Below, piece by piece: positions 4,530 to 61,940 of a stretch of 64,000 nt of DNA. The notes beneath the pieces were generated by a model. It did not search any database. It was given only the letters and a program-made list of their open reading frames with translations, and was not told where the DNA came from. The first letter of the stretch is position 1; the number at the start of each line of letters is the position of its first letter. The DNA is taken from NCBI GenBank assembly GCA_964016885.1, contig OZ024749.1:31248001-31312000 (forward strand), read 5' to 3'. The position numbers were made by a program, and so were the translations under genes. This DNA is from Eledone cirrhosa (taxonomy: Eukaryota).

Positions 4530-4724
4530 AATGGAGGAGGTGTGGTAAGGATGCAGATGGACCATAACGCACCAGATTATTCAATACTTAGAGCAGTAAA
4601 GTGGGTAATAGGAAAATGTTTAACCCCGACGGCAGAGCTCAAGCCGTTTCGACGGCTATTTCTGAGTCCAGAATAAGCCGTCGAAACGGCTTGAGCTCTG
4701 CCGTCGGGGTTAAACATTTTCCTA
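4530..4724 (-). mobile_element. TA-flanked fold-back element family A (3' half of a hammerhead)
   Basis: Inverted repeat 4609-4724 plus ~80 bp unique tail. Contains GAAA-cggc-ttgagctct-gccg-TC-gggg. Confidence 0.85.
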
Positions 4725-5206
4725 TATATATATATCCTTCCCTCTCTTTCACTGAGGTATTCAATCCAGAGAATGAGAGAGAGAAAAAATCTTTGTTGCG
4801 TTGATTACCATTTTTTTTCATTTCTGTCATCCTCCTCTCTCTCTCTTTCTCTCTCTTTCTCTCTCTTTTTCTCTCTCTTTCTCTATCATTCACTCTCTCT
4901 ATTTCTCACTCTCTCTCTCTCCCCCTCACTCTCCCTCACATACTCCATGGCTCTTTCTCAATCATTCTCCCTCACTCCTCACACCGCTCTTTCCCTCGCT
5001 CTCTCTCACTCACTCCCTCTCTCTCTTTCTCACTAACTCCCTCTCTCTCTCTCTTTCCCCTCTCCTTCCCTGGAATATTCAATCCACACAACAAGTAACA
5101 ATTACTGTGTTGATTACCCTTTTTCTTTTTTTACATCTTCATTCTATGTTTTGTATTCCTAATCTCTTCCTTCCAATGTCACTATCAATATATATACATA
5201 CATAGA

Positions 5207-7739: not shown

Positions 7740-10700
7740 TTTCTTTTATTTGCCACTAGGGCATCAAAAGTGGGACAAGTACAAAGGGGGGAGTTTACAC
7801 AAAAAGGCGTCCTCAATAAGGAGGAGGTAATAACAAAATATAAAAATAAAATAAGATATAACGAAAAATAAAATTGATAGCAAAATCCTCAATAGAGAGG
7901 AGGCGCCTTGGGGGGTCGCACACACCCCCGAAAAAAGTGTGCAACCCTTCTCCTCAGGAGCACAGAGAACGGGTGCTCCCTTGGTCTTTCATCTTCCTCA
8001 CCTATAGTCTGATGTAGAGTGAAGGCCCATTCACACAGGCCATTCTCGCCACTTTCACCCATCTTTCATAGAAACGGCTGGGGTGCAGCACCTCTCTCTC
8101 CATCCTGATCCTTCTTCCAAAATGATATCGGAAGAAACGGACCAGTTGTTGGCCAGAGAGAAAGGTGCCTGACCTCAGTCCTTTCAGACGCGTCCACCAT
8201 ACAACCTCTTTCGCCATGGCTATTACGCACAGAAACACCGCCTCTGCTTCATCTTTGAAGCGGGGAGGCGGCTTGATCATTACAATAGACTCGGTGGTCA
8301 ACCGGATCGGTCCCACCCTTGACAGCAGTTGTTCGACATAGCCCCACAGATCGGCTACGCCCGAGCAGTGTACCAATGCGTGTGCAAGGGTTTCCTCGTC
8401 GCACACGCATCTGGGACAGATCTTTTTGGCGGGGTCCCTACCCGGGCGCCCGTGTCTGTAGAGCCTTTCTCGAACCGGTAAAGCCCCTCGGTAGCACTGC
8501 CAGGCCAGGGACTTCTGGAAGTTGTCCATAGGTCCCGGGCTGAATGTCCTACCGAACAGGCTGGCCAGTTCGTCCTCCTCCATGTCTAGGGCTTCTCCGA
8601 GGGCGTCGTCGCACCTGCTGCGTACCAGCCCTCTATAGAATGTTGCGGTGGAGTCTCCACTGATAACCGGATCCGCCTGCCAGAGGGCGGTGAGCTCCTG
8701 GGTACACTCAGTGTGCCAGGCGCCCAGTTTTCTTGGTCTTTGCTTGACCCAGGATTGCAGCTCGGTGAGTGAGACGAGTCTGGGAAAGGTTCGTCTCACA
8801 AACGAGGCCCACACCGGTTGTCCGGTGAGGAATACGTAGAGGTGCCGTAGCCTTAATGCGTGTTTACGCATCATTAGCCACGGCATCCCCAGCCCTCCTT
8901 TCGAAGGGTGTGGACAGCAGATGGATCTCCTCACCATAGGAGCCCGCCTCTTCCAAAGGAATTGGAAGAGCGCGCGCTCCATCTTGGTGAGGGTTTCCCT
9001 TGGGCAGGGCACTACGGTCAGGCGGTAGTAGATGACGGACGCTATGTAGGTGTTCGCCACCTCCGCCCGACCTTTCAGGGATAGTTTGCAACTGGCCCAC
9101 TTCTGGGTCAGTGCAAACACCCTGTTCGTAACCTCCGCCCAGTTTTTCTCCACCTGGAGGTCCGGTCCGAACCAGACCCCGAGCAACTTCACCGGGCCCT
9201 CCGTCCAGCGTCCGACGACGCCATCGGAGGGCATCGGTCTGCCCCTCCACGTGCCGAGTTGCAAACCGATCGACTTGTCCCGGTTCAGCTTAGCCCCTGT
9301 GAACTTTTCGTACTCCTCCAGTAAGGTGCCGACCGCCTCGATTTCGGAGGCCGTCGACACCATTACTGTCACGTCATCGGCGTAGGCCGACACCGCTTTC
9401 CGCAATCCCGGTTCCAAAGGGATGCCCTGCAACAACTCCAACTTCCGCAGTAGTGGCTCGAGAGTCAACACATACAGAAGGGAGGAGAGAGGGCACCCTT
9501 GTCGGATGGACCGCGCGATTTTGAACGGCTCCGAGAGGTAGCCGTTCACCTTGACCCTAGAGCAGATGCGGCTGCTGTGCATAGCAGTGATCCAGCCCCT
9601 GAAAACGGGTCCGAAGCCTGCCGCCGCTAGCACCGCATCCAGGTAACCATGGTCGACCCTATCGAACGCCTTAGATTGATCCAAGTTGATCAGAGCCCCA
9701 CCAAAGCCGGGTTCGTTCCCAACCCTCTCTATGATGTATCGCATGAGGTGGAGGTTGTCATGGATGGATCTGGACGGGATAGCGCATGTCTGCGCATCTC
9801 CCACCAGGTTGCCCACGACAAGCGCCAACCTCTTTGCTAGCACCTTGGCCAAAATCTGTAACTCTGTATTTAGCAGAGTTATGGGCCTGAAGTTACGTAT
9901 TTCGTCCCCCTTGTTCTCGTCCTTCCTCACTAGCGTGACTACGCCCTTGGTCATGTACAGGGAATTCTCCCGTTCTGTTGCCAGTTGCAGTAGACCGCCT
10001 CGAGGAGATCGGGGAACAAGTCCGGCATAGCTAGATATAATTCGTAAGGAAGACCATCGAGACCCGGGGATTTGCGTTTGCCGCATTGGCTCAGCACGTC
10101 CTCTATCTCAGCGGCCGAAATCGGCTCCTCGCAGGACTTCGCCTCCCTGTCCGAGAGGCGCGGCAGGCCGTCGAGGTATGGACCGAAGTCCACGTTCCCA
10201 ACCGGCTCCCCGCCCCTCCCGAACAGTCGGGCAAAGTGCCTTTGAAAGGCCTCACACATCTGCCTAGGCTCAAGAATCGCCCGTCCATCCAGGTCTCGCA
10301 AAGACCGGATGGTGGATTTAGTTCCACTGTTGGCCTCTGTCACGTGGGCCCAGCTAACAGCTTTGGTCCCCTCGTTCCCTAGAGTACGTATTTTACTTCG
10401 GACAACGCAGCCTTCGTGCTTCGCGTCGAAAAACTGGCTCAAAGCCGTTCTCGACGCTAGCACTCTGGCCACGTCGCCGCTTCTAATTGCCTCTTCTACT
10501 CTATCTATTAGCTCCCTTTCCTTCCTATTCCTATCCGCAGCTAGAACCTTACTAAATTCTATCGAGACTACTCTAATCTCTCTCTTTAGAGATACCCACC
10601 ACCTGCTGTTGACGATCGCTCCAGTCAACCGTTCCTTAACTAACGTACTAATCCGATTCCTGTAGGCTCTACTTGCCGGCAAGGACAAGTTGAGCTTCCA

Positions 10701-11578
10701 GTAACCGGGGCCCTGTCTATGAGTTCTGTCAAGGTTGACCATGCAGGTCACTAATTTGTGGTCTGAATAGCCAACCATGCGCATTTTTGGACAACTTAAA
10801 AAGTCCTTATCCTTAATTCTAACTAAGAACCTATCTAGGTACGACCTAGATGATCCGCTACGATTTGCCCAAGTCCAGGTTGGCGCAGTCGGAAAATCTA
10901 GTCGATATCTATCGGCCAGGTCAAATCGACCGATTAACCCTTTGAGGCTATTACACCCCTCTCTATTGGGACAGGCCCCTACGTAGTCCCAGCGTGCATC
11001 TAGGATACCATTCCAGTCCCCCACTAATAGCAAGGAGCGGGACGTCCCTAGAAAAGTCTCCAGACGATGGAAGAAGTCCGGCCGCATTGACCCGAAGGGG
11101 CCGTAGGCGGCTACCTAGCTAAACGCTCCGCCTTTACCACTGCCAAGGTCCAGAACCACTAGTCGACCCTCCGGGTCCAAATGTACCATCTGTGTTGCGA
11201 GACCCAGATGTTTTTGCAGCAGAACGACAACTCCACCCCCACCTCCGGGATGACAGAGAGATGCGTGCATCTCAAAGTCATCAAAGGTGGGGGCCAGCTG
11301 TCGCACGTTGCTGATCCGGGCCTCGCAAATAACCATCACATCTATACGTTGTGACCTGAGGTCATTTAGAAGCATTGCTTGCTTCCAAGTTGAGCCCAGG
11401 CCACGCGCATTTAAACAGCCTACTCTTAGCATAGCCATGTTGGTGGTGAAGAGAAAAGGCACTTACCTCTCTGCGTCCCGGGTATCGGGCTGCACAATTT
11501 CCATTAGGGTGGGGGATGGGTTGTTGGGTGGGGTGGTGGTTTGTGGAAGTGTGGGGGCATCAGTGTTTTGTGTGGTTG
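7740..11578 (-). mobile_element. Tx1/L1-clade non-LTR retrotransposon, copy A (5'-truncated in the ORF1 tail)
   Basis: Full ORF2 region plus ~260 bp 3' UTR. (GATA)n on both sides. Confidence 0.93.
8002..11438 (-). pseudogene. ORF2: APE endonuclease + reverse transcriptase + C-terminal zinc knuckle, frameshifted
   Basis: Motifs LNARGL, GDWN, YLDRF, SDHK, SPGLDG, FRPITLLN, KAFDRV, QGCPLS, YADD and CPRC..ETLAHALVHC. Split over three ORFs with frameshifts near 11110 and 9955. Confidence 0.93.
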
Positions 11579-11587
11579 TATAGATAT

Positions 11588-11659
<72 letters not shown>

Positions 11660-11660
<1 letters not shown>

Positions 11661-12168
11661 TTTCTTTTTATTTGCCACCAGGGCATCAAAAGTGGGACAA
11701 GTACAATGGAGGGAGTTTACATAACAAGGCGTCCTCAATAAGGAGGAGGCAATAACAAAGTATAAAAATAAAATACAATATAACAAAATAAATTTTATAA
11801 CAAAATCCTCCATAGGGAGGAGGCGCCTTGGGGGTCGCACACACCCCCGAAAAAAAGTGTGCAACCCTTCTCCTCAGGAGCACAGAGAGGGGGTGCTCCC
11901 TTGATCTTTCCTCTTCCTCACCTATAGTCTGATGTAGAGTGAAGGCCCATTCACACAGGCCATTCTCGCCACTTTCACCCATCTTTCATAAAATCGGCTG
12001 GGGTGCAGCACCTCTCTCTCCATCCTGATCCTTCTTCCGAAATGATATCGGAAGAAACGGACCAGTTGTTGGCCAGAGAGAAAGGTGTCTGACCTCAGTC
12101 CTTTCAGACGCGTCCACCATACAACCTCTTTCGCCATGGCTATTACGCACAGAAACACCGCCTCTCCT
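11660..12168 (-). mobile_element. Tx1-like LINE copy B, ~0.5 kb 3' fragment of the copy A subfamily
   Basis: ORF 11922-12158 is nearly identical to the C-terminus of copy A, and the 3' UTR is similar. Confidence 0.92.
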
Positions 12169-12188
12169 TAGATAGTTAGATAGATAGA

Positions 12189-14297
12189 TTTCTTTATTTA
12201 CCATAAAGGCATAAAAAGAAGGGACAAATACAAAGGGGGAGTTTACATATAATCGAGTAAAAAGGGTGTAACATGAAAATAATCGAAAATAACCTCAAAA
12301 GGGAGGGGACGTGATGGGGGTTGCACACACCCCCGAAAAAGTGTGCAATCCTTTGCCCGGGGAGCACATGGAGAAGGTGCTCCCCTCTCCTTTACTTCTT
12401 TACCTACAGGATGGTATACAGAGAAGGCCCATTTACACGAGCCATTCTCGCCACTATCACCCACCTTTCATAAAACTGCCTGTGGCCAAGCACCTCTCTC
12501 TCCATTCTTATCCTTCTTCCGAAGTGATATCGGAAGAAGTAGACCAGACTATGGCCAGAGAGGAAGTTGCCTGACCTCAGACCTTTCAATCGTGTCCACC
12601 AAACAACCTCTTTCAACATGGCTATTACGCACAGAAAAACCGCCTTTGCTTCCTTTGTGAAGAGGGGAGGCGGTTTGATTGTCATCACGGACTCGGCGGT
12701 CAATTTAATCGGCGCCACCCGCGACAGCAGTTGTTCGGCGTAGCCCCACAGATCAGCCACGCCAGGACATTGCACCAATGCGTGCGCCACGGTTTCTTCG
12801 TGACGCACGCATCTAGGGCAAATCTTTTTTGAGGGATCCCTGCCCGGGCGCCCGTGTCTGTAGAGCCTCTCTCGAACGGGTAGAGCCCCTCGGTAGCACT
12901 GCCAGGCCAGTGACTTCTGGAAGTTGTCCATTGGTCCTGGGCCGAAAGTCCTACCGAACAGGCTGGCCAGTTCGTCTTCTTCCATGTCCAGCGACTCTCC
13001 AAGGGTGTCATCGCTCCTGCTAGCCACCAGCCCTCTATAGAATGATGAGGTGGATTCTCCACCGATGGCCCGGCCCGCTTGCCAGAGAGCCCTGAGCGCC
13101 TGAGCACACTCAGTGTGCCAGTCTCCCAGTTTTCCGGATCTTTGCTTGACCCAGGACTGTAGCTCGGTGAGTGAGACGAGTCTCGGAAAGGCTCGTTTCA
13201 CGAACGGAGCCCACACCGGTTGACCAGTGAGGAATACCTGTAGGTGCCGTAGCCTTAATGCGTGCCTACGCATCATCAACCACGGCATCCCCAGCCCTCC
13301 TTTCGAAGGTTGTTGGCAGCAGATGGATCTTCTCACCATAGGAGGACGCTTCTTCCAAAGAAATTGGAAGAGCATGCGTTCCATGGTGGTGAGTGTTTCC
13401 TTAGGGCAAGGCACGACAGTCAGGCGGTAGTAAGTGACGGACGCTATGTAAATGTTCGCCACCTCCGCCCGGCCTTTTAGGGACAGCTTACACTTGGCCC
13501 ATTTCTGGGTTAGTGCAAACACCTTGTTCGTAACCTCGTTCCAGTTCTTTTCCACCTGGAGGTCCGGTCCAAACCAGACCCCAAGCAACTTTACCGGGCC
13601 CTCCGTCCAGTGTCCGACGACACCGTCAGGAGGCATCGGTTTGCCTCTCCACGTTCCGAGTTGCAGCCCGATGGATTTTTCCCGGTTCAGTTTCGCTCCT
13701 GACAACCTTTCGTACTCCTCCAGTAAGGTACCGATCGCCTCGATCTCCGAGTCGGTTGATACCATTACTGTTACGTCATCGGCGTAGGCCGACACCGCTT
13801 TGCTCAATCCTGGTTCCAGGGGGATACCCTGCAACAACTCCAACTTCCTCAGTAAAGGCTCGAGAGTCAATACGTACAGAAGGGAGGAGAGAGGGCACCC
13901 CTGTCGAATGGATCGTGTGATTTCGAACGGCTTCGAAAGATAGCCGTTCACCTTGATCCTAGAACAGATGTGGTTGCTATGTAGGGCAGTGATCCAGCCT
14001 CTGAAAACAGGACCGAACCCAGCCGCCGCTAGCACCGCATCCAGGTAACCATGGTCGACCCTATCGAAGGCCTTAGACTGATCCAAGTTGATCAGGGCCC
14101 CACCGAAGCCGGGTTTGTTGCCAACCCTCTCTATGATGTATCGCATGAGGTGGAGGTTATCGTGAATGGAGCTGGATGGGATAGCACATGTCTGCGCATC
14201 TCCAACCAGGCCACCCACGACAAGCGCCAACCTCTTTGCTAACACCTTGGCCAAAATCTTTAACTCTGTGTTTAGCAGGGTTATGGGCCGAAAATTC
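12189..14297 (-). mobile_element. Tx1-like LINE copy C, 2.1 kb 3' fragment, second subfamily, open RT frame 12404-14297
   Basis: QGCPLS, YADD and zinc knuckle. The 3' UTR differs from copy A. Confidence 0.93.
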
Positions 14298-14322
14298 TTA
14301 GATAGTTAGATAGATAGATAGA

Positions 14323-16431
14323 TTTCTTTATTTACCATAAAGGCATAAAAAGAAGGGACAAATACAAAGGGGGAGTTTACATATAATCGAGTAAAAAGGG
14401 TGTAACATGAAAATAATCGAAAATAACCTCAAAAGGGAGGGGACGTGATGGGGGTTGCACACACCCCCGAAAAAGTGTGCAATCCTTTGCCCGGGGAGCA
14501 CATGGAGAAGGTGCTCCCCTCTCCTTTACTTCTTTACCTACAGGATGGTATACAGAGAAGGCCCATTTACACGAGCCATTCTCGCCACTATCACCCACCT
14601 TTCATAAAACTGCCTCTGGCCAAGCACCTCTCTCTCCATTCTTATCCTTCTTCCGAAGTGATATCGGAAGAAGTAGACCAGACTATGGCCAGAGAGGAAG
14701 TTGCCTGACCTCAGACCTTTCAATCGTGTCCACCAAACAACCTCTTTCAACATGGCTATTACGCACAGAAAAACCGCCTTTGCTTCCTTTGTGAAGAGGG
14801 GAGGCGGTTTGATTGTCATCACGGACTCGGCTGTCAATTTAATCGGCGCCACCCGCGACAGCAGTTGTTCGGCGTAGCCCCACAGATCAGCCACGCCCGG
14901 ACATTGCACCAATGCGTGCGCCACGGTTTCTTCGTGACGCACGCATCTAGGGCAAATCTTTTTTGAGGGATCCCTGCCCGGGCGCCCGTGTCTGTAGAGC
15001 CTCTCTCGAACGGGTAGAGCCCCTCGGTAGCACTGCCAGGCCAGTGACTTCTGGAAGTTGTCCATTGGTCCTGGGCCGAAAGTCCTACCGAACAGGCTGG
15101 CCAGTTCGTCTTCTTCCATGTCCAGCGACTCTCCAAGGGTGTCATCGCCCCTGCTAGCCACCAGCCCTCTATAGAATGATGAGGTGGATTCTCCACCGAT
15201 GGCCCGGCCCGCTTGCCAGAGAGCCCTGAGCGCCTGAGCACACTCAGTGTGCCAGTCTCCCAGTTTTCCGGATCTTTGCTTGACCCAGGACTGTAGCTCG
15301 GTGAGTGAGACGAGTCTCGGAAAGGCTCGTTTCACGAACGGAGCCCACACCGGTTGACCAGTGAGGAATACCTGTAGGTGCCGTAGCCTTAATGCGTGCC
15401 TACGCATCATCAACCACGGCATCCCCAGCCCTCCTTTCGAAGGTTGTTGGCAGCAGATGGATCTTCTCACCATAGGAGGACGCTTCTTCCAAAGAAATTG
15501 GAAGAGCATGCGTTCCATGGTGGTGAGTGTTTCCTTAGGGCAAGGCACGACAGTCAGGCGGTAGTAAGTGACGGACGCTATGTAAATGTTCGCCACCTCC
15601 GCCCGGCCTTTTAGGGACAGCTTACACTTGGCCCATTTCTGGGTTAGTGCAAACACCTTGTTCGTAACCTCGTTCCAGTTCTTTTCCACCTGGAGGTCCG
15701 GTCCAAACCAGACCCCAAGCAACTTTACCGGGCCCTCCGTCCAGTGTCCGACGACACCATCGGGAGGCATCGGTCTGCCTCTCCACGTTCCGAGTTGCAG
15801 CCCGATGGATTTTTCCCGGTTCAGTTTCGCTCCTGACAACCTTTCGTACTCCTCCAGTAAGGTACCGATCGCCTCGATCTCCGAGTCGGTTGATACCATT
15901 ACTGTTACGTCATCGGCGTAGGCCGACACCGCTTTGCTCAATCCTGGTTCCAGGGGGATACCCTGCAACAACTCCAACTTCCTCAGTAAAGGCTCGAGAG
16001 TCAATACGTACAGAAGGGAGGAGAGAGGGCACCCCTGTCGAATGGATCGTGTGATTTCGAACGGCTTCGAAAGGTAGCCGTTCACCTTGATCCTAGAACA
16101 GATGTGGTTGCTATGTAGGGCAGTGATCCAGCCTCTGAAAACAGGACCGAACCCAGCCGCCGCTAGCACCGCATCCAGGTAACCATGGTCGACCCTATCG
16201 AAGGCCTTAGACTGATCCAAGTTGATCAGGGCCCCACCGAAGCCGGGTTTGTTGCCAACCCTCTCTATGATGTATCGCATGAGGTGGAGGTTATCGTGAA
16301 TGGACCTGGATGGGATAGCACATGTCTGCGCATCTCCAACCAGGCCACCCACGACAAGCGCCAACCTCTTTGCTAACACCTTGGCCAAAATCTTTAACTC
16401 TGTGTTTAGCAGGGTTATGGGCCGAAAATTC
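14323..16431 (-). mobile_element. Tx1-like LINE copy D, near-identical to copy C at 2134-bp offset, open RT frame 14538-16431
   Basis: Same 5' truncation point. About 9 substitutions seen relative to copy C. Confidence 0.93.
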
Positions 16432-16849
16432 TTAGATAGTTAGATAGATAGATAGATAGATAGATAGGGAGATAGATATATAGTTATCTTGAAAGTAATT
16501 TAGATGAGAAAAAGTATAAAACATATGATAACAAAATCTGTTAGAACAACAACGAAGCTATAAACCAAATGTTCATCTTCCCATTTTTCTCTGTGTAAAC
16601 CAATTAACTTTTTATTAAATAAATAAACACAGCAGATTAAAATGTTTGGATAATAAAATTGTTTAAGCGAATGGAAAAAAGAAATGGAATTTGAAAATGT
16701 AAAATTTTGCAAATTTATAAAGATTTGTGTTATAATTATTATTGTTATTATTATTAATATATATTGTATCTTCATGTTATTGTTTAGAGATAATTTATGT
16801 ATGGAGATAATTGTTAATGTTTTGTTATTCTTCTTGGTGATGTTCTTGT

Positions 16850-19198: not shown

Positions 19199-19378
19199 TA
19201 ACGAAGGAAATGTGGTAAGGAACCAGATGGACCATAACGCACCAAAGTACTCAATACTTAGGGTAGTAGAGTGGGTAATAGGAACAAGTATGACCCCGAC
19301 GGCAGAGCTCAAGCCGTTTCGAAACGGGTCGAAACGGCTTGAGCTCTGCCGTCGGGGGGGGGGGGGGTCATACTTGTT

Positions 19379-20590: not shown

Positions 20591-20637
<47 letters not shown>

Positions 20638-20693
20638 ATACTTGGGGAGGGTCATATGTGTGTAATATTGCCAGAATTAATAACAGAACACAG

Positions 20694-21035
20694 TCACTGT
20701 TTGGTTGGTTTTCGCTTTTCGCTTCTGTGTCTTTTATATCGGTAATCTAATTTATTCGGTCCCCAATGTCGCCATTGACTTGACAAGACCAGAGAATACA
20801 AAGCTTCAACGGTGTGAGTGGCCGTGGTAAATATTATCAGAAAAAACAGGATATCCTGGCGTTTTACCATGTAGCTGAGAAAGTGACCAAAAGGACCAAG
20901 ATTTTGGTATGGAATTATTGATGGCTGGAAGTAGCAGATAAACAACAGTGATATACCCAAAGGTACGATTAAAGCAACCAACAAACTTGGAAATCGTGGT
21001 TTAGTGCCCAAAATACTCTTCATTTGTCCTGCCAT
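20694..21035 (-). pseudogene. TMEM254: TMEM254-like processed fragment (left arm)
   Basis: Mirror copy of 21282-21680, with a 1-bp indel near the C-terminus. Confidence 0.72.
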
Positions 21036-21281
21036 TATTGTTATAGCCTACTTGTTATGTCTAACCTGTTTGATACAACACTTAATACGGCTGCTGAAGC
21101 AGTCTAATCTAAATTATAAAAAAATAATTATAGGATTGGTGTTAAGCTCTTAATGTAGATACATTAAGAGCTTAATACCAATCCTATAATTATTTTTTTA
21201 TAATTTAGATTAGACTGCTTCAGCAGCCGTATTAAGTGTTGTATCAAACAGGTTAGACATAACAAGTAGGCTATAACAATA

Positions 21282-21680
21282 ATGGCAGGACAAATGAAGA
21301 GTATTTTGGGCACTAAACCACGATTTCCAAGTTTGTTGGTTGCTTTAATCGTACCTTTGGGTATATCACTGTTGTTTATCTGCTACTTCCAGCCATCAAT
21401 AATTCCATACCAAAATCTTGGTCCTTTTGGTCACTTTCTCAGCTACATGGTAAAACGCCAGGATATCCTGTTTTTTCTGATAATATTTACCACGGCCACT
21501 CACACCGTTGAAGCTTTGTATTCTCTGGTCTTGTCAAGTCAATGGCGACATTGGGGACCGAATAAATTAGATTACCGATATAAAAGACACAGAAGCGAAA
21601 AGCGAAAACCAACCAACAGTGAGTGTGTTCTGTTATTAATTCTGGCAATATTACACAAATATGACCCTCCCCAAGTATAA
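21282..21680 (+). pseudogene. TMEM254: TMEM254-like processed (intronless) fragment with an unrelated C-terminus
   Basis: FQPSIIPYQNLGPFGHFLSYMV...HTVEALYSLVLS resembles, from memory, human TMEM254 WPQSIPYQNLGPLGPFTQYLV...HVGESLYAIVLC. Similarity stops at ~21538. Confidence 0.75.
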
Positions 21681-21724
21681 CTATATTTGTTTCGACACAC
21701 GATTTCATATAAAAAACCTCGCAA

Positions 21725-21794
<70 letters not shown>

Positions 21795-21796
<2 letters not shown>

Positions 21797-22191
21797 TTAA
21801 GAGTTAAATAAGGTTCAATGAATACATCAAAGAATGAGTTTTACATTAGATTGGAAGCACTCAACAGCCAAATGTTTTCCAGAGTTATTAATATTAATTC
21901 AAAATATTAACAAAATAGATATTGTTGTGATCAATTATATTTTATTATACATATTTCAGAGGTACTGAGTTAAGTTCAACAGTACGTCCTGATCAGATAA
22001 AATAAAATGATACATGACATACATGATACATGACTTGATTGAATCTTAACCATCTACTATGTCAGGGTATGTCATGTATCATTTTCTTTTATCTGATGAG
22101 GACGTACTGTTGAACTTAACTCAGTACCTCTGAAATATGTATAATGAAATATAATTGCTCACAAGAATATCTATTGTGTTAATATTTTGAA

Positions 22192-22198
<7 letters not shown>
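21795..22198 (-). mobile_element. TA-flanked fold-back element related to family C, hammerhead in each arm
   Basis: Inverted arms ~21890-22022 and ~22067-22198 plus a unique tail containing aagcactcaaca, shared with ~5945-5956. Confidence 0.85.
22087..22149 (+). ncRNA. Minimal type I hammerhead ribozyme
   Basis: ttttat-CTGATGA-ggacgtactg..cagtacctct-GAAA-T-atgt-A-TA-atgaaa. The mirror copy at 21940-22002 (-) has CTGATCA. Confidence 0.78.
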
Positions 22199-22558
<360 letters not shown>

Positions 22559-34373: not shown

Positions 34374-37300
34374 ATAGATATGTCCTATGTAGATATGTCC
34401 TGTGTAGATATGTCCTGTGTAGATATGTCCTATGTAGATATGTCCTCTGTAGATATGTCCTGTGTAGATATGTCCTGTGTAGATATGTCCTGTGTAGATA
34501 TGTCCTGTGTAGATATGTCCTCTGTAGATATGTCCTGTGTAGATATGGCCTCTGTAGATATGTCCTGTGTAGATATGTCCTGTGTAGATATGTCCTATGT
34601 AGATATGTCCTCTGTAGATATGTCCTGTGTAGATATGTCCTGTGTAGATATGTCCTCTGTAGATATGTCCTGTGTAGATATGTCCTCTGTAGATATGTCC
34701 TCTGTAGATATGTCCTCTGTAGATATGTCCTCTGTAGATATGTCCTCTGTAGATATGTCCTCTGTAGATATGTCCTCTGTAGATATGTCCTGTGTAGATA
34801 TGTCCTGTGTAGATATGTCCTGTGTAGATATGTCCTCTGTAGATATGTCCTGTGTAGATATGGCCTCTGTAGATATGTCCTGTGTAGATATGTCCTGTGT
34901 AGATATGTCCTGTGTAGATATGTCCTGTGTAGATATGTCCTGTGTAGATATGTCCTCTGTAGATATGTCCTGTGTAGATATGTCCTCTGTAGATATGTCC
35001 TCTGTAGATATGTCCTGTGTAGATATGTCCTCTGTAGATATGTCCTGTGTAGATATGTCCTGTGTAGATATGTCCTGTGTAGATATGTCCTGTGTAGATA
35101 TGTCCTCTGTAGATATGTCCTGTGTAGATATGTCCTGTGTAGATATGTCCTGTGTAGATATGTCCTGTGTAGATATGTCCTGTGTAGATATGGCCTCTGT
35201 AGAAATGTCCTCTGTAGATATGTCCTGTGTAGATATGTCCTGTGTAGATATGTCCTCTGTAGATATGTCCTCTGTAGATATGTCCTGTGTAGATATGTCC
35301 TGTGTAGATATGTCCTGTGTAGATATGTCCTCTGTAGATATGTCCTGTGTAGATATGGCCTGTGTAGATATGTGCTCTGTAGATATGTTCTGTGTAGATA
35401 TGTCCTGTGTAGATATGTCCTGTGTAGATATGTCCTGTGTAGATATGGCCTCTGTAGAAATGTCCTCTGTAGAGATGTCCTGTGTAGATATGTCCTCTGT
35501 AGATATGTCCTCTGTAGATATGTCCTGTGTAGATATGTCGTCTGTAGATATGTCCTGTGTAGATATGTCCTGTGTAGATATGTCCTGTGTAGATATGTCC
35601 TCTGTAGATATGTCCTGTGTAGATATGTCCTCTGTAGATATGTCCTGTGTAGATATCTCCTCTGTAGATATGTCCTGTGTAGAAATGTCGTCTGTAGATA
35701 TGTCCTGTGTAGATATGTCCTCTGTAGATATGTCCTGTGTAGATATGTCCTCTGTAGATATGTCCTGTGTAGATATGTCCTGTGTAGATATGTCCTCTGT
35801 AGATATGTCCTGTGTAGATATGTCCTCTGTAGATATGTCCTGTGTAGATATCTCCTCTGTAGATATGTCCTGTGTAGAAATGTCCTCTGTAGATATGTCC
35901 TGTGTAGATATGTCCTCTGTAGATATGTCCTGTGTAGATATGTCCTCTGTAGATATGTCCTGTGTAGATATGACCTGTGTAGATATGTCCTCTGTAGATA
36001 TGTCCTGTGTAGATATGTCCTGTGTAGATATGTCCTGTGTAGATATGTCCTGTGTAGATATGTCCTGTGTAGATATGTCCTCTGTAGATATGTCCTCTGT
36101 AGATATGTCCTGTGTAGATATGTCCTGTGTAGATATGTCCTCTGTAGATATGTCCTGTGTAGATATGTCCTGTGTAGATATGTCCTGTGTAGATATGTCA
36201 GGTGTAGATATGTCCTGTGTAGATATGTCCTGTGTAGATATGTCCTGTGTAGTTATGTCCTGTGTAGATATGTCCTGTGTAGATATGTCCTGTGTAGAAA
36301 TGTCCTCTGTAGATATGTCCTCTGTAGATATGTCCTGTGTAGATATGTCCTATGTAGATATGTCCTCTGTAGATATGTCGTCTGTAGATATGTCCTGTGT
36401 AGATATGTCCTGTGTAGATATGTCCTGTGTAGATATGTCCTGTGTAGATATGTCCTGTGTAGATATGTCCTCTATAGATATGTCCTGTGTAGATATGTCC
36501 TGTGTAGATATGTCCCCTGTAGATATGTCCCCTGTAGATATGTCCTGTGTAGATATGTCCTGTGTAGATATGTCCTGTGTAGATATTTCATATGTAGATA
36601 TGTCCTGTGTAGATATGTCCTGTGTAGATATGTCCTGTGTAGATATGTCCTGTGTAGATATGTCCCCTGTAGATATGTCCTCTGTAGATATGTCCTGTGT
36701 AGATATGTCCTGTGTAGATATGTCCTGTGTAGATATGTCCTCTGTAGATATGTCCTGTGTAGATATGGCCTGTGTAGATATGTGCTCTGTAGATATGTTC
36801 TGTGTAGATATGTCCTGTGTAGATATGTCCTGTGTAGATATGTCCTGTGTAGATATGGCCTCTGTAGAAATGTCCTCTGTAGATATGTCCTGTGTAGATA
36901 TGTCCTCTGTAGATATGTCCTCTGTAGATATGTCCTGTGTAGATATGTCCTGTGTAGATATGTCCTGTGTAGACATGTCCTCTGTAGATATGTCCTCTGT
37001 AGATATGTCCTGTGTAGATATGTCCTCTGTAGATATGTCCTGTGTAGATATGTCCTGTGTAGATATGTCCTCTGTAGATATGTCCTGTGTAGATATGTCC
37101 TGTGTAGATATGTTCTCTGTAGATATGTCCTGTGTAGATATGTCCTGTGTAGATATGTCCTGTGTAGATATGTCCTCTGTAGATATGTCCTGTGTAGATA
37201 TGTCCTGTGTAGATATGTCCTGTGTAGATATGTCCTCTGTAGATATGTCCTGTGTAGATATGTCCTCTGTAGATATGTCCTGTGTAGATATGTTCTCTGT

Positions 37301-40300
37301 AGATATGTCCTGTGTAGATATGTCCTGTGTAGATATGTCCTGTGTAGATATGTCCTGTGTAGATATGTCCTGTGTAGATATTTCATATGTAGATATGTCC
37401 CCTGTAGATATGTCCTGTGTAGATATGTCCTGTGCAGATATGTCCTGTGTAGATATGTCCTGTGTAGATATGTCCCCTGTAGATATGTCCTCTGTAGATA
37501 TGTCCTGTGTAGATATGTCCTGTGTAGATATGTCCTGTGTAGATATGTCCTCTGTAGATATGTTCTCTGTAGATATGTCCTGTGTAGATATGTCCTCTGT
37601 AGATATGTCCTCTGTAGATATGTCCTGTGTAGATATGTCCTCTGTAGATATGTCCTGTGTAGATATGTCCTGTGTAGATATGTCCTCTGTAGATATGTCC
37701 TGTGTAGATATGGCCTGTGTAGATATGTGCTCTGTAGATATGTTCTGTGTAGATATGTCCTGTGTAGATATGTCCTGTGTAGATATGTCCTCTGTAGATA
37801 TGTCCTGTGTAGATATGTCCTGTGTAGATATGTTCTCTGTAGATATGTCCTGTGTAGATATGTCCTGTGTAGATATGTCCTCTGTAGATATGTCCTGTGT
37901 AGATATGTCCTGTGTAGATATGTCCTGTGTAGATATGTCCTGTGTAGATATGTCCTCTGTAGATATGTCCTCTGTAGATATGTCCTGTGTAGATATGTCC
38001 TGTGTAGATATGTCCTCTGTAGATATGTCCCCTGTAGATATGTCGTCTGTAGATATGTCCTGTGTAGATATGTCCTGTGTAGATATGTCCTGTGTAGATA
38101 TGTCCTGTGTAGATATGTCCTCTGTAGATATGTCCTCTGTAGATATGTCCTCTGTAGATATGTCCTGTGTAGATATGTTCTCTGTAGATATGTCCTGTGT
38201 AGATATGTCCTGTGTAGATATGTCCTGTGTAGATATGTCCTGTGTAGATATGTCCTGTGTAGATATTTCATATGTAGATATGTCCCCTGTAGATATGTCC
38301 TGTGTAGATATGTCCTGTGTAGATATGTCCTGTGTAGATATGTCCTGTGTAGATATGTCCCCTGTAGATATGTCCTCTGTAGATATGTCCTGTGTAGATA
38401 TGTCCTCTGTAGATATGTCCTGTGTAGATATGTCCTGTGTAGATATGTCCTGTGTAGATATGTCCTGTGTAGATATGTCCTGTGTAGATATGTCCTCTGT
38501 AGATATGTCCTCTGTAGATATGTCCTGTGTAGATATGTTGTCTGTAGATATGTCCTGTGTAGATATGTCCTGTGTAGATATGTCCTGTGTAGATATGTCC
38601 TCTGTAGATATGTCCTCTGTAGATATGTCCTGTGTAGATATGTCGTCTGTAGATATGTCCTCTGTAGATATGTCCTGTGTAGATATGTCCTGTGTAGATA
38701 TGTCCTCTGTAGATATGTCCTGTGTAGATATGTCCTGTGTAGATATGTCCTGTGTAGATATGTCCTGTGTAGATATGTCCTCTGTAGATATGTCCTCTGT
38801 AGATATGTCCTGTGTAGATATGTCCTGTGTAGATATGTCCTCTGTAGATATGTCCCCTGTAGATATGTCGTCTGTAGATATGTCCTGTGTAGATATGTCC
38901 TGTGTAGATATGTCCTGTGTAGATATGTCCTGTGTAGATATGTCCTCTGTAGATATGTCCTCTGTAGATATGTCCTCTGTAGATATGTCCTGTGTAGATA
39001 TGTCCTGTGTAGATATGTCCTGTGTAGATATGTCCTGTGTAGACATGTTCTGTGTAGATATGTCCTGTGTAGATATGTCCTGTGTAGATATGTCCTCTGT
39101 AGATATGTCCTGTGTAGATATGTCCTGTGTAGATATGTTCTCTGTAGATATGTTCTCTGTAGATATGTCCTGTGTAGATATGTCCTGTGTAGATATGTCC
39201 TGTGTAGATATGTCCTGTGTAGACATGTCCTGTGTAGATATTTCATATGTAGATATGTCCTGTGTAGATATGTCCTGTGTAGATATGTCCTGTGTAGATA
39301 TGTCCTGTGTAGATATGTCCTGTGTAGATATTTCATATGTAGATATGTCCCCTGTAGATATGTCCTGTGTAGATATGTCCTGTGTAGATATGTCCTGTGT
39401 AGATATGTCCCCTGTAGATATGTCCTCTGTAGATATGTCCTGTGTAGATATGTCCTGTGTAGATATGTCCTGTGTAGATATGTCCTCTGTAGATATGTTC
39501 TCTGTAGATATGTCCTGTGTAGATATGTCCTGTGTAGATATGTCCTCTATAGATATGTCCTGTGTAGATATGTCCTGTGTAGATATGTCCCCTGTAGATA
39601 TGTCCCCTGTAGATATGTCCTGTGTAGATATGTCCTGTGTAGATATGTCCTGTGTAGATATGTCCTGTGTAGACATGTTCTGTGTAGATATGTCCTGTGT
39701 AGATATGTCCTGTGTAGATATGTCCTCTGTAGATATGTCCTGTGTAGATATGTCCTGTGTAGATATGTTCTCTGTAGATATGTCCTGTGTAGATATGTCC
39801 TGTGTAGATATGTCCTGTGTAGATATGTCCTGTGTAGACATGTCCTGTGTAGATATTTCATATGTAGATATGTCCTGTGTAGATATGTCCTGTGTAGATA
39901 TGTCCTGTGTAGATATGTCCTGTGTAGACATGTCCTGTGTAGATATTTCATATGTAGATATGTCCCCTGTAGATATGTCCTGTGTAGATATGTCCTGTGT
40001 AGTTATGTCCTGTGTAGATATGTCCTGTGTAGATATGTCCTCTGTAGATATGTCCTGTGTAGATATGGCCTGTGTAGATATGTGCTCTGTAGATATGTTC
40101 TGTGTAGATATGTCCTGTGTAGATATGTCCTGTGTAGATATGTCCTCTGTAGATATGTCCTGTGTAGATATGTCCTGTGTAGATATGTTCTCTGTAGATA
40201 TGTCCTGTGTAGATATGTCCCCTGTAGATATGTCCTGTGTAGATATGTCCTGTGTAGATATGTCCTGTGTAGATATTTCATATGTAGATATGTCCCCTGT

Positions 40301-43300
40301 AGATATGTCCTGTGTAGATATGTCCTGTGTAGTTATGTCCTGTGTAGATATGTCCTGTGTAGATATGTCCTGTGAAGAAATGTCCTCTGTAGATATGTCC
40401 TCTGTAGATATGTCCTGTGTAGATATGTCCTATGTAGATATGTCCTCTGTAGATATGTCGTCTGTAGATATGTCCTGTGTAGATATGTCCTGTGTAGATA
40501 TGTCCTGTGTAGATATGTCCTGTGTAGATATGTCCTGTGTAGATATGTCCTCTATAGATATGTCCTGTGTAGATATGTCCTGTGTAGATATGTCCCCTGT
40601 AGATATGTCCCCTGTAGATATGTCCTGTGTAGATATGTCCTGTGTAGATATGTCCTGTGTAGATATTTCATATGTAGATATGTCCCCTGTAGATATGTCC
40701 TGTGTAGATATGTCCTGTGTAGATATGTCCTGTGTAGATATGTCCTGTGTAGACATGTCCTGTGTAGATATTTCATATGTAGATATGTCCTGTGTAGATA
40801 TGTCCTCTGTAGATATGTCCTGTGTAGATATGTGCTGTGTAGATATGTTCTCTGTAGATATGTCCTGTGTAGATATGTCCTGTGTAGTTATGTCCTGTGT
40901 AGATATGTCCTGTGTAGATATGTCCTCTGTAGATATGTCCTGTGTAGATATGGCCTGTGTAGATATGTGCTCTGTAGATATGTTCTGTGTAGATATGTCC
41001 TGTGTAGATATGTCCTGTGTAGATATGTCCTCTGTAGATATGTCCTGTGTAGATATGTCCTGTGTAGATATGTTCTCTGTAGATATGTCCTGTGTAGATA
41101 TGTCCCCTGTAGATATGTCCTGTCTAGATATGTCCTGTGTAGATATGTCCTGTGTAGATATTTCATATGTAGATATGTCCCCTGTAGATATGTCCTGTGT
41201 AGATATGTCCTGTGTAGTTATGTCCTGTGTAGATATGTCCTGTGTAGATATGTCCTGTGTAGAAATGTCCTCTGTAGATATGTCCTCTGTAGATATGTCC
41301 TGTGTAGATATGTCCTATGTAGATATGTCCTCTGTAGATATGTCGTCTGTAGATATGTCCTGTGTAGATATGTCCTGTGTAGATATGTCCTGTGTAGATA
41401 TGTCCTGTGTAGATATGTCCTGTGTAGATATGTCCTCTATAGATATGTCCTGTGTAGATATGTCCTGTGTAGATATGTCCCCTGTAGATATGTCCCCTGT
41501 AGATATGTCCTGTGTAGATATGTCCTGTGTAGATATGTCCTGTGTAGATATTTCATATGTAGATATGTCCCCTGTAGATATGTCCTGTGTAGATATGTCC
41601 TGTGTAGATATGTCCTGTGTAGATATGTCCTGTGTAGATATGTCCCCTGTAGATATGTCCTCTGTAGATATGTCCTGTGTAGATATGTCCTGTGTAGATA
41701 TGTCCTGTGTAGACATGTCCTCTGTAGATATGTCCTCTGTAGATATGTCCTGTGTAGATATGTCCTCTGTAGATATGTCCTGTGTAGATATGTCCTGTGT
41801 AGATATGTCCTCTGTAGATATGTCCTGTGTAGATATGTCCTGTGTAGATATGTTCTCTGTAGATATGTCCTGTGTAGATATGTCCTGTGTAGATATGTCC
41901 TGTGTAGATATGTCCTGTGTAGACATGTCCTCTGTAGATATGTCCTCTGTAGATATGTCCTGTGTAGATATGTCCTGTGTAGATATGTCCTGTGTAGACA
42001 TGTCCTCTGTAGATATGTCCTGTGTAGATATGTTCTCTGTAGATATGTCCTGTGTAGATATGTCCTGTGTAGATATGTCCTGTGTAGATATGTCCTGTGT
42101 AGATATGTCCTGTGTAGATATGTCCTGTGTAGATATGTCCTGTGTAGATATGTCCTGTGTAGATATGTCCTGTGTAGATATGTCCTATGTAGATATGTCC
42201 TATGTAGATATGTCCTCTGTAGATATGTCCTGTGTAGATATGTCCTCTGTAGATATGTCCTATGTAGATATGTCCTGTGTAGATATGTCCTGTGTAGATA
42301 TGTCCTGTGTAGATATGTCCTGTGTAGATATGTCCTCTGTAGATATGTCCTGTGTAGATATGTCCTCTGTAGATATGTCCTGTGTAGATATGTCCTCTGT
42401 AGATATGTCCTGTGTAGATATGTCCTGTGTAGATATGTCCTGTGTAGATATGTCCTGTGTAGATATGTCCTGTGTTGATATGTGCTGTGTAGATATGTCC
42501 TGTGTAGATATGTCCTGTGTAGATATGTCCTGTGTAGATATGTCCTCTGTAGATATGTCCTTTGTAGATATGGCCTCTGTAGATATGTCCTGTGTAGATA
42601 TGTCCTATGTAGATATGTCCTGTGTAGATATGTCCTGTGTAGATATGTCCTGTGTAGATATGTCCTGTGTAGATATGTCCTCTGTAGATATGTCCTGTGT
42701 AGATATGTCCACTGTAGATATGTCCTGTGTAGATATGTCCTGTGTAGATATGTCCTCTGTAGATATGTCCTCTGTAGATATGTCCTGTGTAGATATGTCC
42801 TCTGTAGATATGTCCTCTGTAGATATGTCCTCTGTAGATATGTCCTGTGTAGATATGTCCTGTGTAGAAATGTCCTGTGTAGATATGTCCTGTGTAGATA
42901 TGTCCTGTGTAGATATGTCCTATGTAGATATGTCCTCTGTAGATATGTCCTCTGTAGATATGTCCTGTGTAGATATGTCCTCTGTAGATATGTCCTATGT
43001 AGATATGTCCTGTGTAGATATGTCCTGTGTAGATATGTCCTCTGTAGATATGTCCTATGTAGATATGTCCTGTGTAGATATGTCCTGTGTAGATATGTCC
43101 TGTGTAGATATGTCCTGTGTAGATATGTCCCCTGTAGATATGTCCTGTGTAGATATGTCCTGTGTAGATATGTCCTGTGTAGATATGTCCTGTGTAGATA
43201 TGTCCCCTGTAGATATGTCCTGTGTAGATATGTCCTGTGTAGATATGTCCTGTGTAGATATGTCCTATGTAGATATGTCCTGTGTAGATATGTCCTGTGT

Positions 43301-46300
43301 TGATATGTCCCCTGTAGCTATGTCCTGTGTAGATATGACCTCTGTAGAAATGTCCTCTGTAGATATGTCCTGTGTAGATATGTCCTGTGTAGATATGTCC
43401 TGTGTAGATATGTCCTGTGTAGATATCTCCTGTGTAGATATGTCCTCTGTAGATATGTCCTGTGTAGATATGTCCTGTGTAGATATGTCCTGTGTAGATA
43501 TGTCCTGTGTAGATATGTCCTCTGTAGATATGACCTGTGTAGATATGTCCTCTGTAGATATGTCCTCTGTAGATATGTCCTCTGTAGATATGTCCTGTGT
43601 AGATATGTCCTGTGTAGACATGTCCTCTGTAGATATGTCCTCTGTAGATATGTCCTGTGTAGATATGTCCTCTGTAGATATGTCCTGTGTAGATATGTCC
43701 TGTGTAGATATGTCCTCTGTAGATATGGCCTGTGTAGATATGTCCTGTGTAGATATGTTCTCTGTAGATATGTCCTGTGTAGATATGTCCTGTGTAGATA
43801 TGTCCTGTGTAGATATGTCCTGTGTAGACATGTCCTCTGTAGATATGTCCTCTGTAGATATGTCCTGTGTAGATATGTCCTCTGTAGATATGTCCTGTGT
43901 AGATATGTCCTGTGTAGATATGTCCTGTGTAGACATGTCCTGTGTAGATATGTCCTGTGTAGATATGTTCTCTGTAGATATGTCCTGTGTAGATATGTCC
44001 TGTGTAGATATGTCCTGTGTAGATATGTCCTGTGTAGATATGTCCTGTGTAGATATGTCCTGTGTAGATATGTCCTGTGTAGATATGTTCTCTGTAGATA
44101 TGTCCTGTGTAGATATGTCCTGTGTAGATATGTCCTATGTAGATATGGCCTCTGTAGATATGTCCTCTGTAGATATGTCCTGTGTAGATATGTCCTCTGT
44201 AGATATGTCCTATGTAGATATGTCCTGTGTAGATATGTCCTGTGTAGATATGTCCTGTGTAGATATGTCCTGTGTAGATATGTCCTCTGTAGATATGTCC
44301 TGTGTAGATATGTCCTCTGTAGATATGTCCTGTGTAGATATGTCCTCTGTAGATATGTCCTCTGTAGATATGTCCTGTGTAGATATGTCCTGTGTAGATA
44401 TGTCCTGTGTAGATATGTCCTGTGTTGATATGTGCTGTGTAGATATGTCCTGTGTAGATATGTCCTGTGTAGATATGTCCTGTGTAGATATGTCCTCTGT
44501 AGATATGTCCTGTGTAGATATGGCCTCTGTAGATATGTCCTGTGTAGATATGTCCTATGTAGATATGTCCTGTGTAGATATGTCCTGTGTAGATATGTCC
44601 TGTGTAGATATGTCCTGTGTAGATATGTCCTCTGTAGATATGTCCTGTGTAGATATGTCCTCTGTAGATATGTCCTGTGTAGATATGTCCTCTGTAGATA
44701 TGTCCTGTGTAGATATGTCCTGTGTAGATATGTCCTCTGTAGATATGTCCTCTGTAGATATGTCCTGTGTAGATATGTCCTCTGTAGATATGTCCTCTGT
44801 AGATATGTCCTCTGTAGATATGTCCTGTGTAGATATGTCCTGTGTAGAAATGTCCTGTGTAGATATGTCCTGTGTAGATATGTCCTGTGTAGATATGTCC
44901 TGTGTAGATATGTAGATATGTGTAGATATGTCCTCTGTAGATATGTCCTCTGTAGTTATGTCCTCTGTAGTTTTGTCCTGTGTAGATATGTCCTGTGTAG
45001 ATATGTCCTGTGTAGATATGTCCTGTGTAGATATGTAGATATGTGTAGATATGTCCTCTGTAGATATGTCCTCTGTAGTTATGTCCTCTGTAGATATGTC
45101 CTGTGTAGATATGTCCTGTGTAGATATGTCCTGTGTAGATATGTCCTGTGTAGACATGTCCTCTGTAGATATGTCCTCTGTAGATATGTCCTGTGTAGAT
45201 ATGTCCTGTGTAGATATGTCCTGTGTAGACATGTCCTCTGTAGATATGTCCTGTGTAGATATGTTCTCTGTAGATATGTCCTGTGTAGATATGTCCTGTG
45301 TAGATATGTCCTGTGTAGATATGTCCTGTGTAGATATGTCCTGTGTAGATATGTCCTGTGTAGATATGTCCTGTGTAGATATGTCCTGTGTAGATATGTC
45401 CTATGTAGATATGTCCTCTGTAGATATGTCCTCTGTAGATATGTCCTGTGTAGATATGTCCTCTGTAGATATGTCCTATGTAGATATGTCCTGTGTAGAT
45501 ATATCCTGTGTAGATATGTCCTGTGTAGATATGTCCTGTGTAGATATGTCCTCTGTAGATATGTCCTGTGTAGATATGTCCTCTGTAGATATGTCCTGTG
45601 TAGATATGTCCTGTGTAGATATGTCCTGTGTAGATATGTCCTGTGTAGATATGTCCTGTGTAGATATGTCCTGTGTTGATATGTGCTGTGTAGATATGTC
45701 CTGTGTAGATATGTCCTGTGTAGATATGTCCTGTGTAGATATGTCCTCTGTAGATATGTCCTTTGTAGATATGGCCTCTGTAGATATGTCCTGTGTAGAT
45801 ATGTCCTATGTAGATATGTCCTGTGTAGATATGTCCTGTGTAGATATGTCCTGTGTAGATATGTCCTGTGTAGATATGTCCTCTGTAGATATGTCCTGTG
45901 TAGATATGTCCTCTGTAGATATGTCCTGTGTAGATATGTCCACTGTAGATATGTCCTGTGTAGATATGTCCTGTGTAGATATGTCCTCTGTAGATATGTC
46001 CTCTGTAGATATGTCCTGTGTAGATATGTCCTCTGTAGATATGTCCTCTGTAGATATGTCCTCTGTAGATATGTCCTGTGTAGATATGTCCTGTGTAGAA
46101 ATGTCCTGTGTAGATATGTCCTGTGTAGATATGTCCTGTGTAGATATGTCCTATGTAGATATGTCCTCTGTAGATATGTCCTCTGTAGATATGTCCTGTG
46201 TAGATATGTCCTCTGTAGATATGTCCTATGTAGATATGTCCTGTGTAGATATGTCCTGTGTAGATATGTCCTCTGTAGATATGTCCTATGTAGATATGTC

Positions 46301-48190: not shown

Positions 48191-48675
48191 GATATGTGTA
48201 GATATGTCCTCTGTAGATATGTCCTCTGTAGTTATGTCCTCTGTAGTTATGTCCTGTGTAGATATGACCTGTGTAGATATGACCTGTATGTAGATATGTG
48301 TAGGTATGTAGATATGTGTAGATATGTAGATATGTGTAGATATGTCCTGTGCAGATATTTGTAGATATGTAGATATGTCCTGTGTAGATATATGTAGATA
48401 TGTGTAGATATGTGTAGACATGTGTAGATATGTGAAGGTATGTAGATATGTAGATATTTGTAGATATGTAGATATGTAGATATGTGAAGGTATGTAGATA
48501 TGTAGATATGACCTGTGTAGATATGTGTAGATATGTGTAGATATATGTAGATATGTGTAGATATGTAGACATGTGTATATATGTGAAGGTACGTAGATAT
48601 GTAGATATTTGTAGATATGTAGATATGTAGATATGTCCGGTGTAGATATGTGTAGATATGTAGATATGTAGATAT
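48191..48675. repeat. Degenerate satellite edge of 8-, 10- and 15-bp units (TAGATATG, TAGATATGTG)
   Basis: Directly visible. Confidence 0.9.
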
Positions 48676-58723: not shown

Positions 58724-59103
58724 TAAACGGAATAGAAAATGCTGACAAATTGTTCACAGTGAAAAATAGTTTAATTAGGAATAAGTGAGAATTAGTAATT
58801 GTATTGGTTAGTATTCAGTTTTGGTTTTAAGTTTTACCGGTTGCGCATTTCTAAATGCTTTTCAAAAATAATTTTGAGATAGCGCGTCAGTGATGTTTGC
58901 TCTATCTCAAAATTATTTTTGAAAAGCATTTAGAAATGCGCAACCGGTAAAACTTAAAACCAAAACTGAATACTAACCAATACAATTACTAATTCTCATT
59001 TATTCCTAATTAAACTATTTTTCACTGTGAACAATTTGTCAGCATTTTCTATTCCGTTTACCAATATATAATAACTTGTGTGTTACACCTCTATTCTTTT
59101 AAC
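58718..59103 (+). mobile_element. TA-flanked asymmetric fold-back insertion (~165-bp arms plus a short tail)
   Basis: ~58718-58884 and ~58899-59068 are near-perfect reverse complements, followed by a unique ~35-bp tail. Confidence 0.85.
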
Positions 59104-61764: not shown

Positions 61765-61940
61765 TAACGAAGGTGTAGTAAGTAACCTGGTGGACCATAA
61801 CGCACCAGAGGACTCAATACTTAGGGTAGTAGAGTAGGTAATAGGATAATGTTTAACCCCGACGGCAGAGCTCAAGTAGTCCAGAAATAGCCGTCGAAAC
61901 GACTTGAGCTCTGCCGTCGGGGTTAAACATTTTCCTTTAT
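61765..61940 (-). mobile_element. TA-flanked fold-back element family A
   Basis: Homologous to 4530-4724. Confidence 0.85.

Follow-up and report, generated by a model that had tools for sequence, protein, structure and literature searches.

A palindromic, intronless TMEM254 copy in Eledone cirrhosa, very probably made by a Penelope-like element

The palindrome and its parent gene

The window, the whole stretch of 64 kb from Eledone cirrhosa that was analysed, contains a 1.09-kb insert at 20635-21727. The insert is a palindrome with 522-bp arms (20636-21157 and 21160-21681), a 2-nt loop (21158-21159) and a 46-nt one-sided tail, by which the right arm extends past its left-arm counterpart to 21727. 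It is flanked on both sides by (TA)n tracts, and the flanks differ. Each arm carries a 122-nt leader, an ATG (21282 on the forward strand and 21035 on the reverse strand) and 86 TMEM254 codons, within open reading frames of 132 residues (forward) and 113 residues (reverse). A preliminary description, made from the letters alone, had given TA-flanked arms of about 523 bp with the same loop and tail, a leader of about 120 nt and about 85 codons per arm, and the measured values agree closely with it. The arms differ by three substitutions (21176, 21623 and 21658) and a 1-nt indel near 21614; the fifth difference is the short-end junction at 21682. The features of the locus are as follows.

20596-20635, no strand: left (TA)n target tract, with (CT)n before it
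20636-20778, reverse: left arm, 3' part of the Penelope-like pLTR, to the family short end (22 nt past the element ORF start)
20779-21157, reverse: left arm, TMEM254 exons 1-3, spliced and inverted
21152-21165, no strand: fold-back tip, 6-bp stem and 2-nt loop; loop and left stem equal parent 5' UTR
21160-21377, forward: TMEM254 exon 1, 5' UTR and codons 1-32; parent G000:C1:206970668-206970866
21378-21478, forward: TMEM254 exon 2; parent G000:C1:206983499-206983599, one substitution
21479-21538, forward: TMEM254 exon 3, through its last base; parent G000:C1:207013823-207013882, then a GTAAG donor; identical
21539-21727, forward: right arm, pLTR 3' part and 46-nt Penelope-like tail, ending at the family medium end (+67)
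21282-21680, forward: chimeric predicted ORF of 132 residues, 86 TMEM254 codons and 46 element-derived codons
21728-21788, no strand: right (TA)n target tract

The peptide had been recognized by its motifs as TMEM254, an identity confirmed by a match to the Pfam family TMEM254 (PF14934) over residues 31-87 (E 1.2e-8; score 35.5 bits, cut-off 23). Its closest full-length relative is the Octopus transmembrane protein 254, with a sequence identity of 53%. A HMMER search with the 86-residue TMEM254 part gave 17 matches, the top one of which (P0001, a 7,327-residue repeat protein) was rejected as spurious, as was the only Rfam match (plastid-UTR), which reflects a TA tract plus a hairpin. A word-index protein search with the 132-residue ORF gave no match.

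A genome search with 21160-21540 returned five matches, of which two are the arms and three are exons on another chromosome-scale contig, C1. The parent TMEM254 gene on C1 has four exons; the Pfam family search missed them, and tblastn with homologues recovered them, including exon 4. All of its introns are GT-AG (12.6, 30.2 and 29.4 kb) and the joined exons encode a complete protein of 121 residues. In the copy, exons 1-3 are fused, the introns of 12.6 and 30.2 kb are precisely absent, and the host sequence stops at the last base of exon 3. The earlier proposals that the copy consists of spliced 5' exons, that an intron-containing parent with matching exon boundaries exists and that the similarity ends at an intron site are thus all borne out, the last at 21538/21539, which is the exon-3 donor, in phase 2. 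Since introns 1 and 2 are gone, a reverse transcriptase must in any version of events have copied a spliced sense RNA. The palindrome has no poly(A), and an element tail stands in place of exon 4, so it is not a LINE-type retrocopy; a target-site duplication would be unreadable inside (TA)n.

Exon 1 of the copy differs from the assembled parent by 8-9 substitutions and a 14-nt indel (extra in the copy), and exons 2-3 differ at one site. Three versions of exon 1 occur across three runs of one sample, one of them equal to the left arm over 164 nt and another intermediate; as this sample may be the assembly source, the run contigs do not count as independent support. Versions of the parent exon 1 (G000:C1:206970668-206970866) are up to 8 bases and the 14-nt indel apart, and two of the bases alter amino acids. 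The exon-1 differences, together with the third version in one run, mean that the copy may stem from a haplotype other than the assembled one. Such an origin is likely, and the divergence of the copy from its parent is no clock.

Run X3 behaves like RNA, although it is not recorded as RNA. One of its contigs, 556 nt long, carries exons 1-3 of the assembled parent allele spliced together at its positions 25-384, in the layout of the exon model. X3 shows exons 1-3 in the parent version only; contigs lose rare forms, so this is uninformative on whether the copy is silent. Records from X1 and X2 cross from exon 3 to exon 2 by 29 and 20 nt and, being below the 31-letter threshold, were not counted as bridges.

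The Penelope-like element and its surroundings

The segment 21539-21727 is 98% identical to the best of many genomic copies, and a 22-nt anchor has 9,568 exact matches in the genome. The suspicion that the foreign tail is a retroelement end was correct: it is the 3' part of a Penelope-like pLTR plus its tail. Three copies (L154, L088 and L098) run from the tail into a long ORF whose ATG corresponds to window position 21661, so that the element ORF starts within the locus and the arrangement has the pLTR-plus-tail layout of Penelope-like elements (PLEs). Open frames in single copies contain YVDD, CX4CxxC and VVY..C..C..YIG, followed by R, H, E and N, which were read by eye, against PMC8557442, as reverse transcriptase (RT), linker zinc-finger and GIY-YIG motifs. 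Pfam support is weak (RVT_1, E 0.001, under the cut-off); the Pfam search of the element frames gave no GIY-YIG profile match, and no solved relative was found.

Ends of the copies cluster at +22 (35 of 91), +67 (11 of 91) and +81 (20 of 91) relative to the ATG, with 19 of the 91 unclassified and six at other positions. In PMC11167929, the RT of another PLE initiates in vitro at two tail sites within the ORF start. The two ends of the palindrome are +22 and +67. A short end is paired with a longer one in all 22 two-armed insertions, which come from a selected sample of loci, and of the 91 copies whose upstream part is intact, 26 are accompanied by an inverted partner inside the 1.2-1.5 kb retrieved. 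Short plus longer end is therefore a signature of the family, which argues that the palindrome is an element product and not an assembly fold-back. We consider it highly probable that the palindrome is a spliced TMEM254 retrocopy made by a PLE.

Both arms carry a two-base tail variant found in only two of the 9,568 anchor matches, both within the palindrome locus; both arms must therefore derive from one source. Confinement of the variant to this locus fits a private donor copy on another haplotype, but also later mutation or editing, both of the changes being A to G.

In 32 of 58 copies, a hammerhead-like core with stem II precedes the junction by 67-78 nt. It has a weak stem I, and the fold of the region is no more stable than those of shuffled sequences (z -0.9). 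The core is absent from the palindrome locus. Downstream of the junction the pLTR has strong donor-like sites (equivalent to window 21562-21567 and 21619-21626) that read GTAAGT in one subfamily and GTGAGT in most copies; judged by their sequence, they are candidates for an intron in the element's own 5' UTR.

Near-perfect fold-backs of other repeat families stand by TA tracts at 21896-22200, 22232-22310 and 58786-58998, and arms related to these lie elsewhere in the window, at 4608-4725, 19294-19357 and 61848-61931. The first two of the fold-backs adjoin the palindrome and are perfect hairpins, and that at 21896-22200 contains a hammerhead-like CTGATGAG...GAAA stretch, noted by eye. Neither shares DNA with the 3' 800 nt of the Penelope-like element, which places them in other families. 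The idea that they and the palindrome came from the same machinery finds no support in DNA similarity, although the family that supplied the tail does have a hammerhead-like core of its own, some 70 nt before the junction. The window also holds a LINE (8002-16439, reverse strand) with endonuclease-like and RT frames, the RT part occurring three times at about 2.1-kb spacing; a 14-kb array (34375-48391) of 933 copies of a 15-bp unit with 93% matches; and a Tc1/mariner-type transposase frame of 326 residues (56954-57934, reverse strand; DDE_3 and HTH_Tnp_Tc3_2).

Origin of the exon-element junction and of the second arm

Host sequence gives way to the pLTR precisely at the exon-3 donor, and the pLTR sequence begins with the base that follows a CAG in the element. 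Among the 18 best copies listed, GGTCAG directly precedes the element side in 14 and a near variant of it in the other four. The stretch upstream of the junction is T-rich and lacks any AG in 26 of the 32 copies whose hammerhead-like core is intact. Exon 3 itself ends in AG, leaving a 2-nt ambiguity at the join. A host donor joined to an element AG is the junction of an exon trap. From what can be read in the DNA (the exon structure, the donor-side junction, the element CAG, the family-typical ends and a tip taken from the parent 5' UTR) we infer splicing as the joining step, priming at the tail and self-priming of the cDNA. Exon 3 would have been spliced to the CAG in the pLTR, giving a hybrid TMEM254-pLTR RNA; the element's enzyme would have reverse-transcribed this RNA at a nicked (TA)n, beginning in the tail; and, having folded back on the 6-bp hairpin near the mRNA 5' end, the cDNA would have been copied out to the short end.

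Splicing accounts for both sides of the junction at once, and we regard it as the probable means of joining. The donor copy that had been suggested to lie in a parent intron was not found: on the assembled haplotype, neither intron 3 nor the 160 kb covered around the parent contains a sense copy with the junction CAG. Intron 3 contains only an older subfamily without the CAG, and the one nearby copy that has it is antisense, 68 kb beyond exon 4. The chance of a sense copy in an intron this long is about 5%. Trapping in cis by an intronic copy, polymorphic or since lost, comes close to an even prospect; trans-splicing is unlikely. Another PLE has its binding site within 172 nt of the ORF start (PMC11167929). 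If the same holds here, the donor would be a copy that continues into the ORF, and such copies are few (about 4 of 91), which keeps trans routes alive. Among the matches listed (32 pieces, with 12,556 more beyond the list), no read-derived contig bridges the exon-3/element junction; a contig of X3 has its first base at exactly 21539, which is no more than a weak hint.

A rather unlikely alternative to splicing is that the RT copied the element's own RNA as far as the AG and jumped, by the 2-nt homology, onto a TMEM254 RNA (either mature mRNA or the free exons 1-3 of a splicing intermediate), all later steps being unchanged. Junctions with 2-4 nt of homology are frequent in the family's inversions, the parent has no donor copy, and the event is unique among the surveyed copies. 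The mRNA model has 22 AGs, however, of which the exon-3 end is one, so that a jump guided by an AG would strike the exon end about once in 22, and it would have left unused a better, 5-nt homology at the junction. The junction sequence TCAGT resembles an initiator, which would place an RNA 5' end at the site. Transcription start at TCAGT was considered, and the 5' ends give no clear peak: those joined to (TA)n lack a dominant peak at the site, and 5' ends fall at TCAG in 5 of about 43 loci, none at the A, among the first 100 of 370 rows listed.

The survey of other junction copies bears on the same choice. It covered 96 of 96 copies preceded by DAG, 84 of 84 preceded by VCAG and 47 of 58 without GG at -6/-5, and is thus confined to one acceptor in one family, leaving aside exons with TCAG or another ending. 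Within it, the TMEM254 locus is the only host-exon chimera among 180 AG-junction copies, and none of the DAG, VCAG or GG-lacking copies provided a second; nor did any surveyed copy show the element's own pLTR spliced at the junction AG. Most of these copies are point mutants, 5' ends in (TA)n or the element's own inversion junctions; five whose flanks are of low complexity were classed by eye. Breakpoints are frequent near the site and scattered about it. In one copy, L066, the junction AG is joined to a different tandem repeat that offers no GT donor, which shows that the junction can form without splicing and speaks for a template switch. The repeat in question (L066 / L204-L213, e.g. G000:C14:18773536-18776654) is a second young repeat of about 580 bp in head-to-tail tandems within (TA)n, with >1,300 candidate matches at near 100% identity, and from its sequence looks like a non-autonomous PLE-type or retrozyme-like unit.

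It is extremely improbable that a LINE first made a processed pseudogene, into whose exon 3/4 boundary a truncated element then inserted before the pseudogene was re-mobilized. LINE RT frames do lie within the window, but the assembly holds no further TMEM254 copy (five DNA and four protein matches), the Penelope-like family targets (TA)n, and a hit on the exon boundary combined with one exactly after the CAG would be a double coincidence.

As for the second arm, the parent upstream of the exon-1 match has the same 11 nt as the tip loop and left stem. The assembled parent allele has no fold at the tip (z +1.1), so the 6-bp stem requires the copy's own bases. The tip thus lies in the parent 5' UTR, about 10 nt downstream of the start of the 556-nt X3 contig, in keeping with the earlier suggestion of reverse transcription followed by snap-back near the mRNA 5' end. 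We favour self-priming of the cDNA at this tip with good confidence. It is unlikely that a dimeric enzyme instead made two cDNAs from two hybrid RNAs, one per tail site, which annealed at the tip; such priming on two strands would concern the second arm alone and is compatible with splicing. In PMC11167929, a PLE protein cleaves and extends both strands, with two start sites, which would suit the short-plus-long ends in 22 of 22 insertions; four of the five arm differences also fall in the element part (p about 0.02). Against it, two copies of a rare RNA would be needed in one complex, and the variants of each arm recur in only 1-3 other loci, as later mutation predicts.

That a one-armed retrocopy was folded back in assembly is likewise extremely improbable. 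Perfect inverted repeats are a known assembly hazard (PMC8557442, on short-read assemblies), and no contig among the matches listed (32 pieces) bridges the tip; contigs of the runs do not cover the tip or most of the right arm, with reads assigned to one arm, and this gap proves nothing. An artefact would not explain five arm differences with the ancestral base sometimes in the left and sometimes in the right arm, two different family-specific ends, a tip that is a natural hairpin from the parent UTR or flanks that differ.

Hairpin RNA and comparison with known systems

Read-through of the palindrome would, by computation, form a hairpin of 518 pairs. The locus itself bears no editing signature. 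Elsewhere in the family, T-to-C-rich segments are rare (4 of 300; median 1 change), and three copies, L259 (G000:C5:90107800-90110500), L138 (G000:C2:144083555-144086577) and L275, have 21-30 T-to-C changes per about 300 nt. The L259 and L138 fold-backs have 27-45 such changes, on the same DNA strand across both arms. This is the pattern expected if an ADAR-edited (A-to-I) hairpin RNA had been reverse-transcribed and re-inserted, and it suggests that fold-backs of the Penelope-like family are likely transcribed in the germ line. Our literature search gave no report of edited, re-inserted copies in cephalopods.

The TMEM254 copy is most likely a dead-on-arrival pseudogene. A more general scheme, which we consider quite improbable, is that pLTR RNA, cut by its own hammerhead about 60 nt upstream, serves as a trans-splicing acceptor that captures the 5' exons of host pre-mRNAs and passes them to the element's RT, after which they are inserted as siRNA-yielding hairpin genes. 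If true, captured host 5' exons would become ready-made hairpin genes, and siRNAs against the parent would be possible. Inverted-repeat pseudogenes and hairpin RNAs can yield endo-siRNAs. Like them, the locus would upon read-through form a near-perfect hairpin of about 520 bp matching an expressed gene; unlike them, it does not include the parent promoter.

The element resembles canonical PLEs of the Neptune/Nematis type with a C-terminal endonuclease, as described in PMC8557442 and PMC11167929, in its RT, CX4CxxC linker and GIY-YIG-like domain with two internal cysteines, in a pLTR overlapping the ORF start with an optional tail and inverted 5' copies, and in its hammerhead-like core and (TA)n target. 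The TMEM254 locus differs from canonical PLEs in retaining only 189 nt of the element, without coding capacity. In Adineta vaga, a host gene was mobilized in trans by PLE enzymes via pLTR cis-sequences (PMC3846280). The two cases share an inverted pLTR with a one-sided tail and palindromes at inverted junctions. In the Adineta vaga case, the host gene lies between pLTRs with all of its introns, whereas the cargo of the TMEM254 locus is a spliced sense mRNA that joins the pLTR internally, at the end of an exon, and this cargo itself forms the head-to-head palindrome. That study ascribes palindromes and intron retention to self-priming on an antisense template and leaves the question open; the core of the present palindrome is a spliced sense mRNA, which indicates that a head-to-head palindrome can arise from such a template by fold-back of the cDNA.

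The closest parallel for the junction is exon trapping, or 5' transduction, by SVA_F1 (MAST2) and pt_SVA_D6 (STK40) (PMC6139936). In both systems host exons are joined to an AG in a retroelement and retroposed, splicing is deduced from the coincidence with an exon end, and the source element is perhaps extinct. The SVA cases are L1-driven and poly(A)-primed and number 84-94 copies, whereas the TMEM254 copy would be PLE-driven, tail-primed and (TA)n-targeted, and is folded back and single. The literature surveyed (titles and abstract openings, with few subscription papers covered) describes no spliced PLE-made retrocopy. The TMEM254 locus represents one event and is probably non-functional. If the proposed reading is correct, a single step would turn an mRNA into a 0.5-kb hairpin locus. 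PLEs, which normally keep introns, would also make intronless gene copies, and exon-trap retroposition, described for L1/SVA, would extend to a third class of retroelement.
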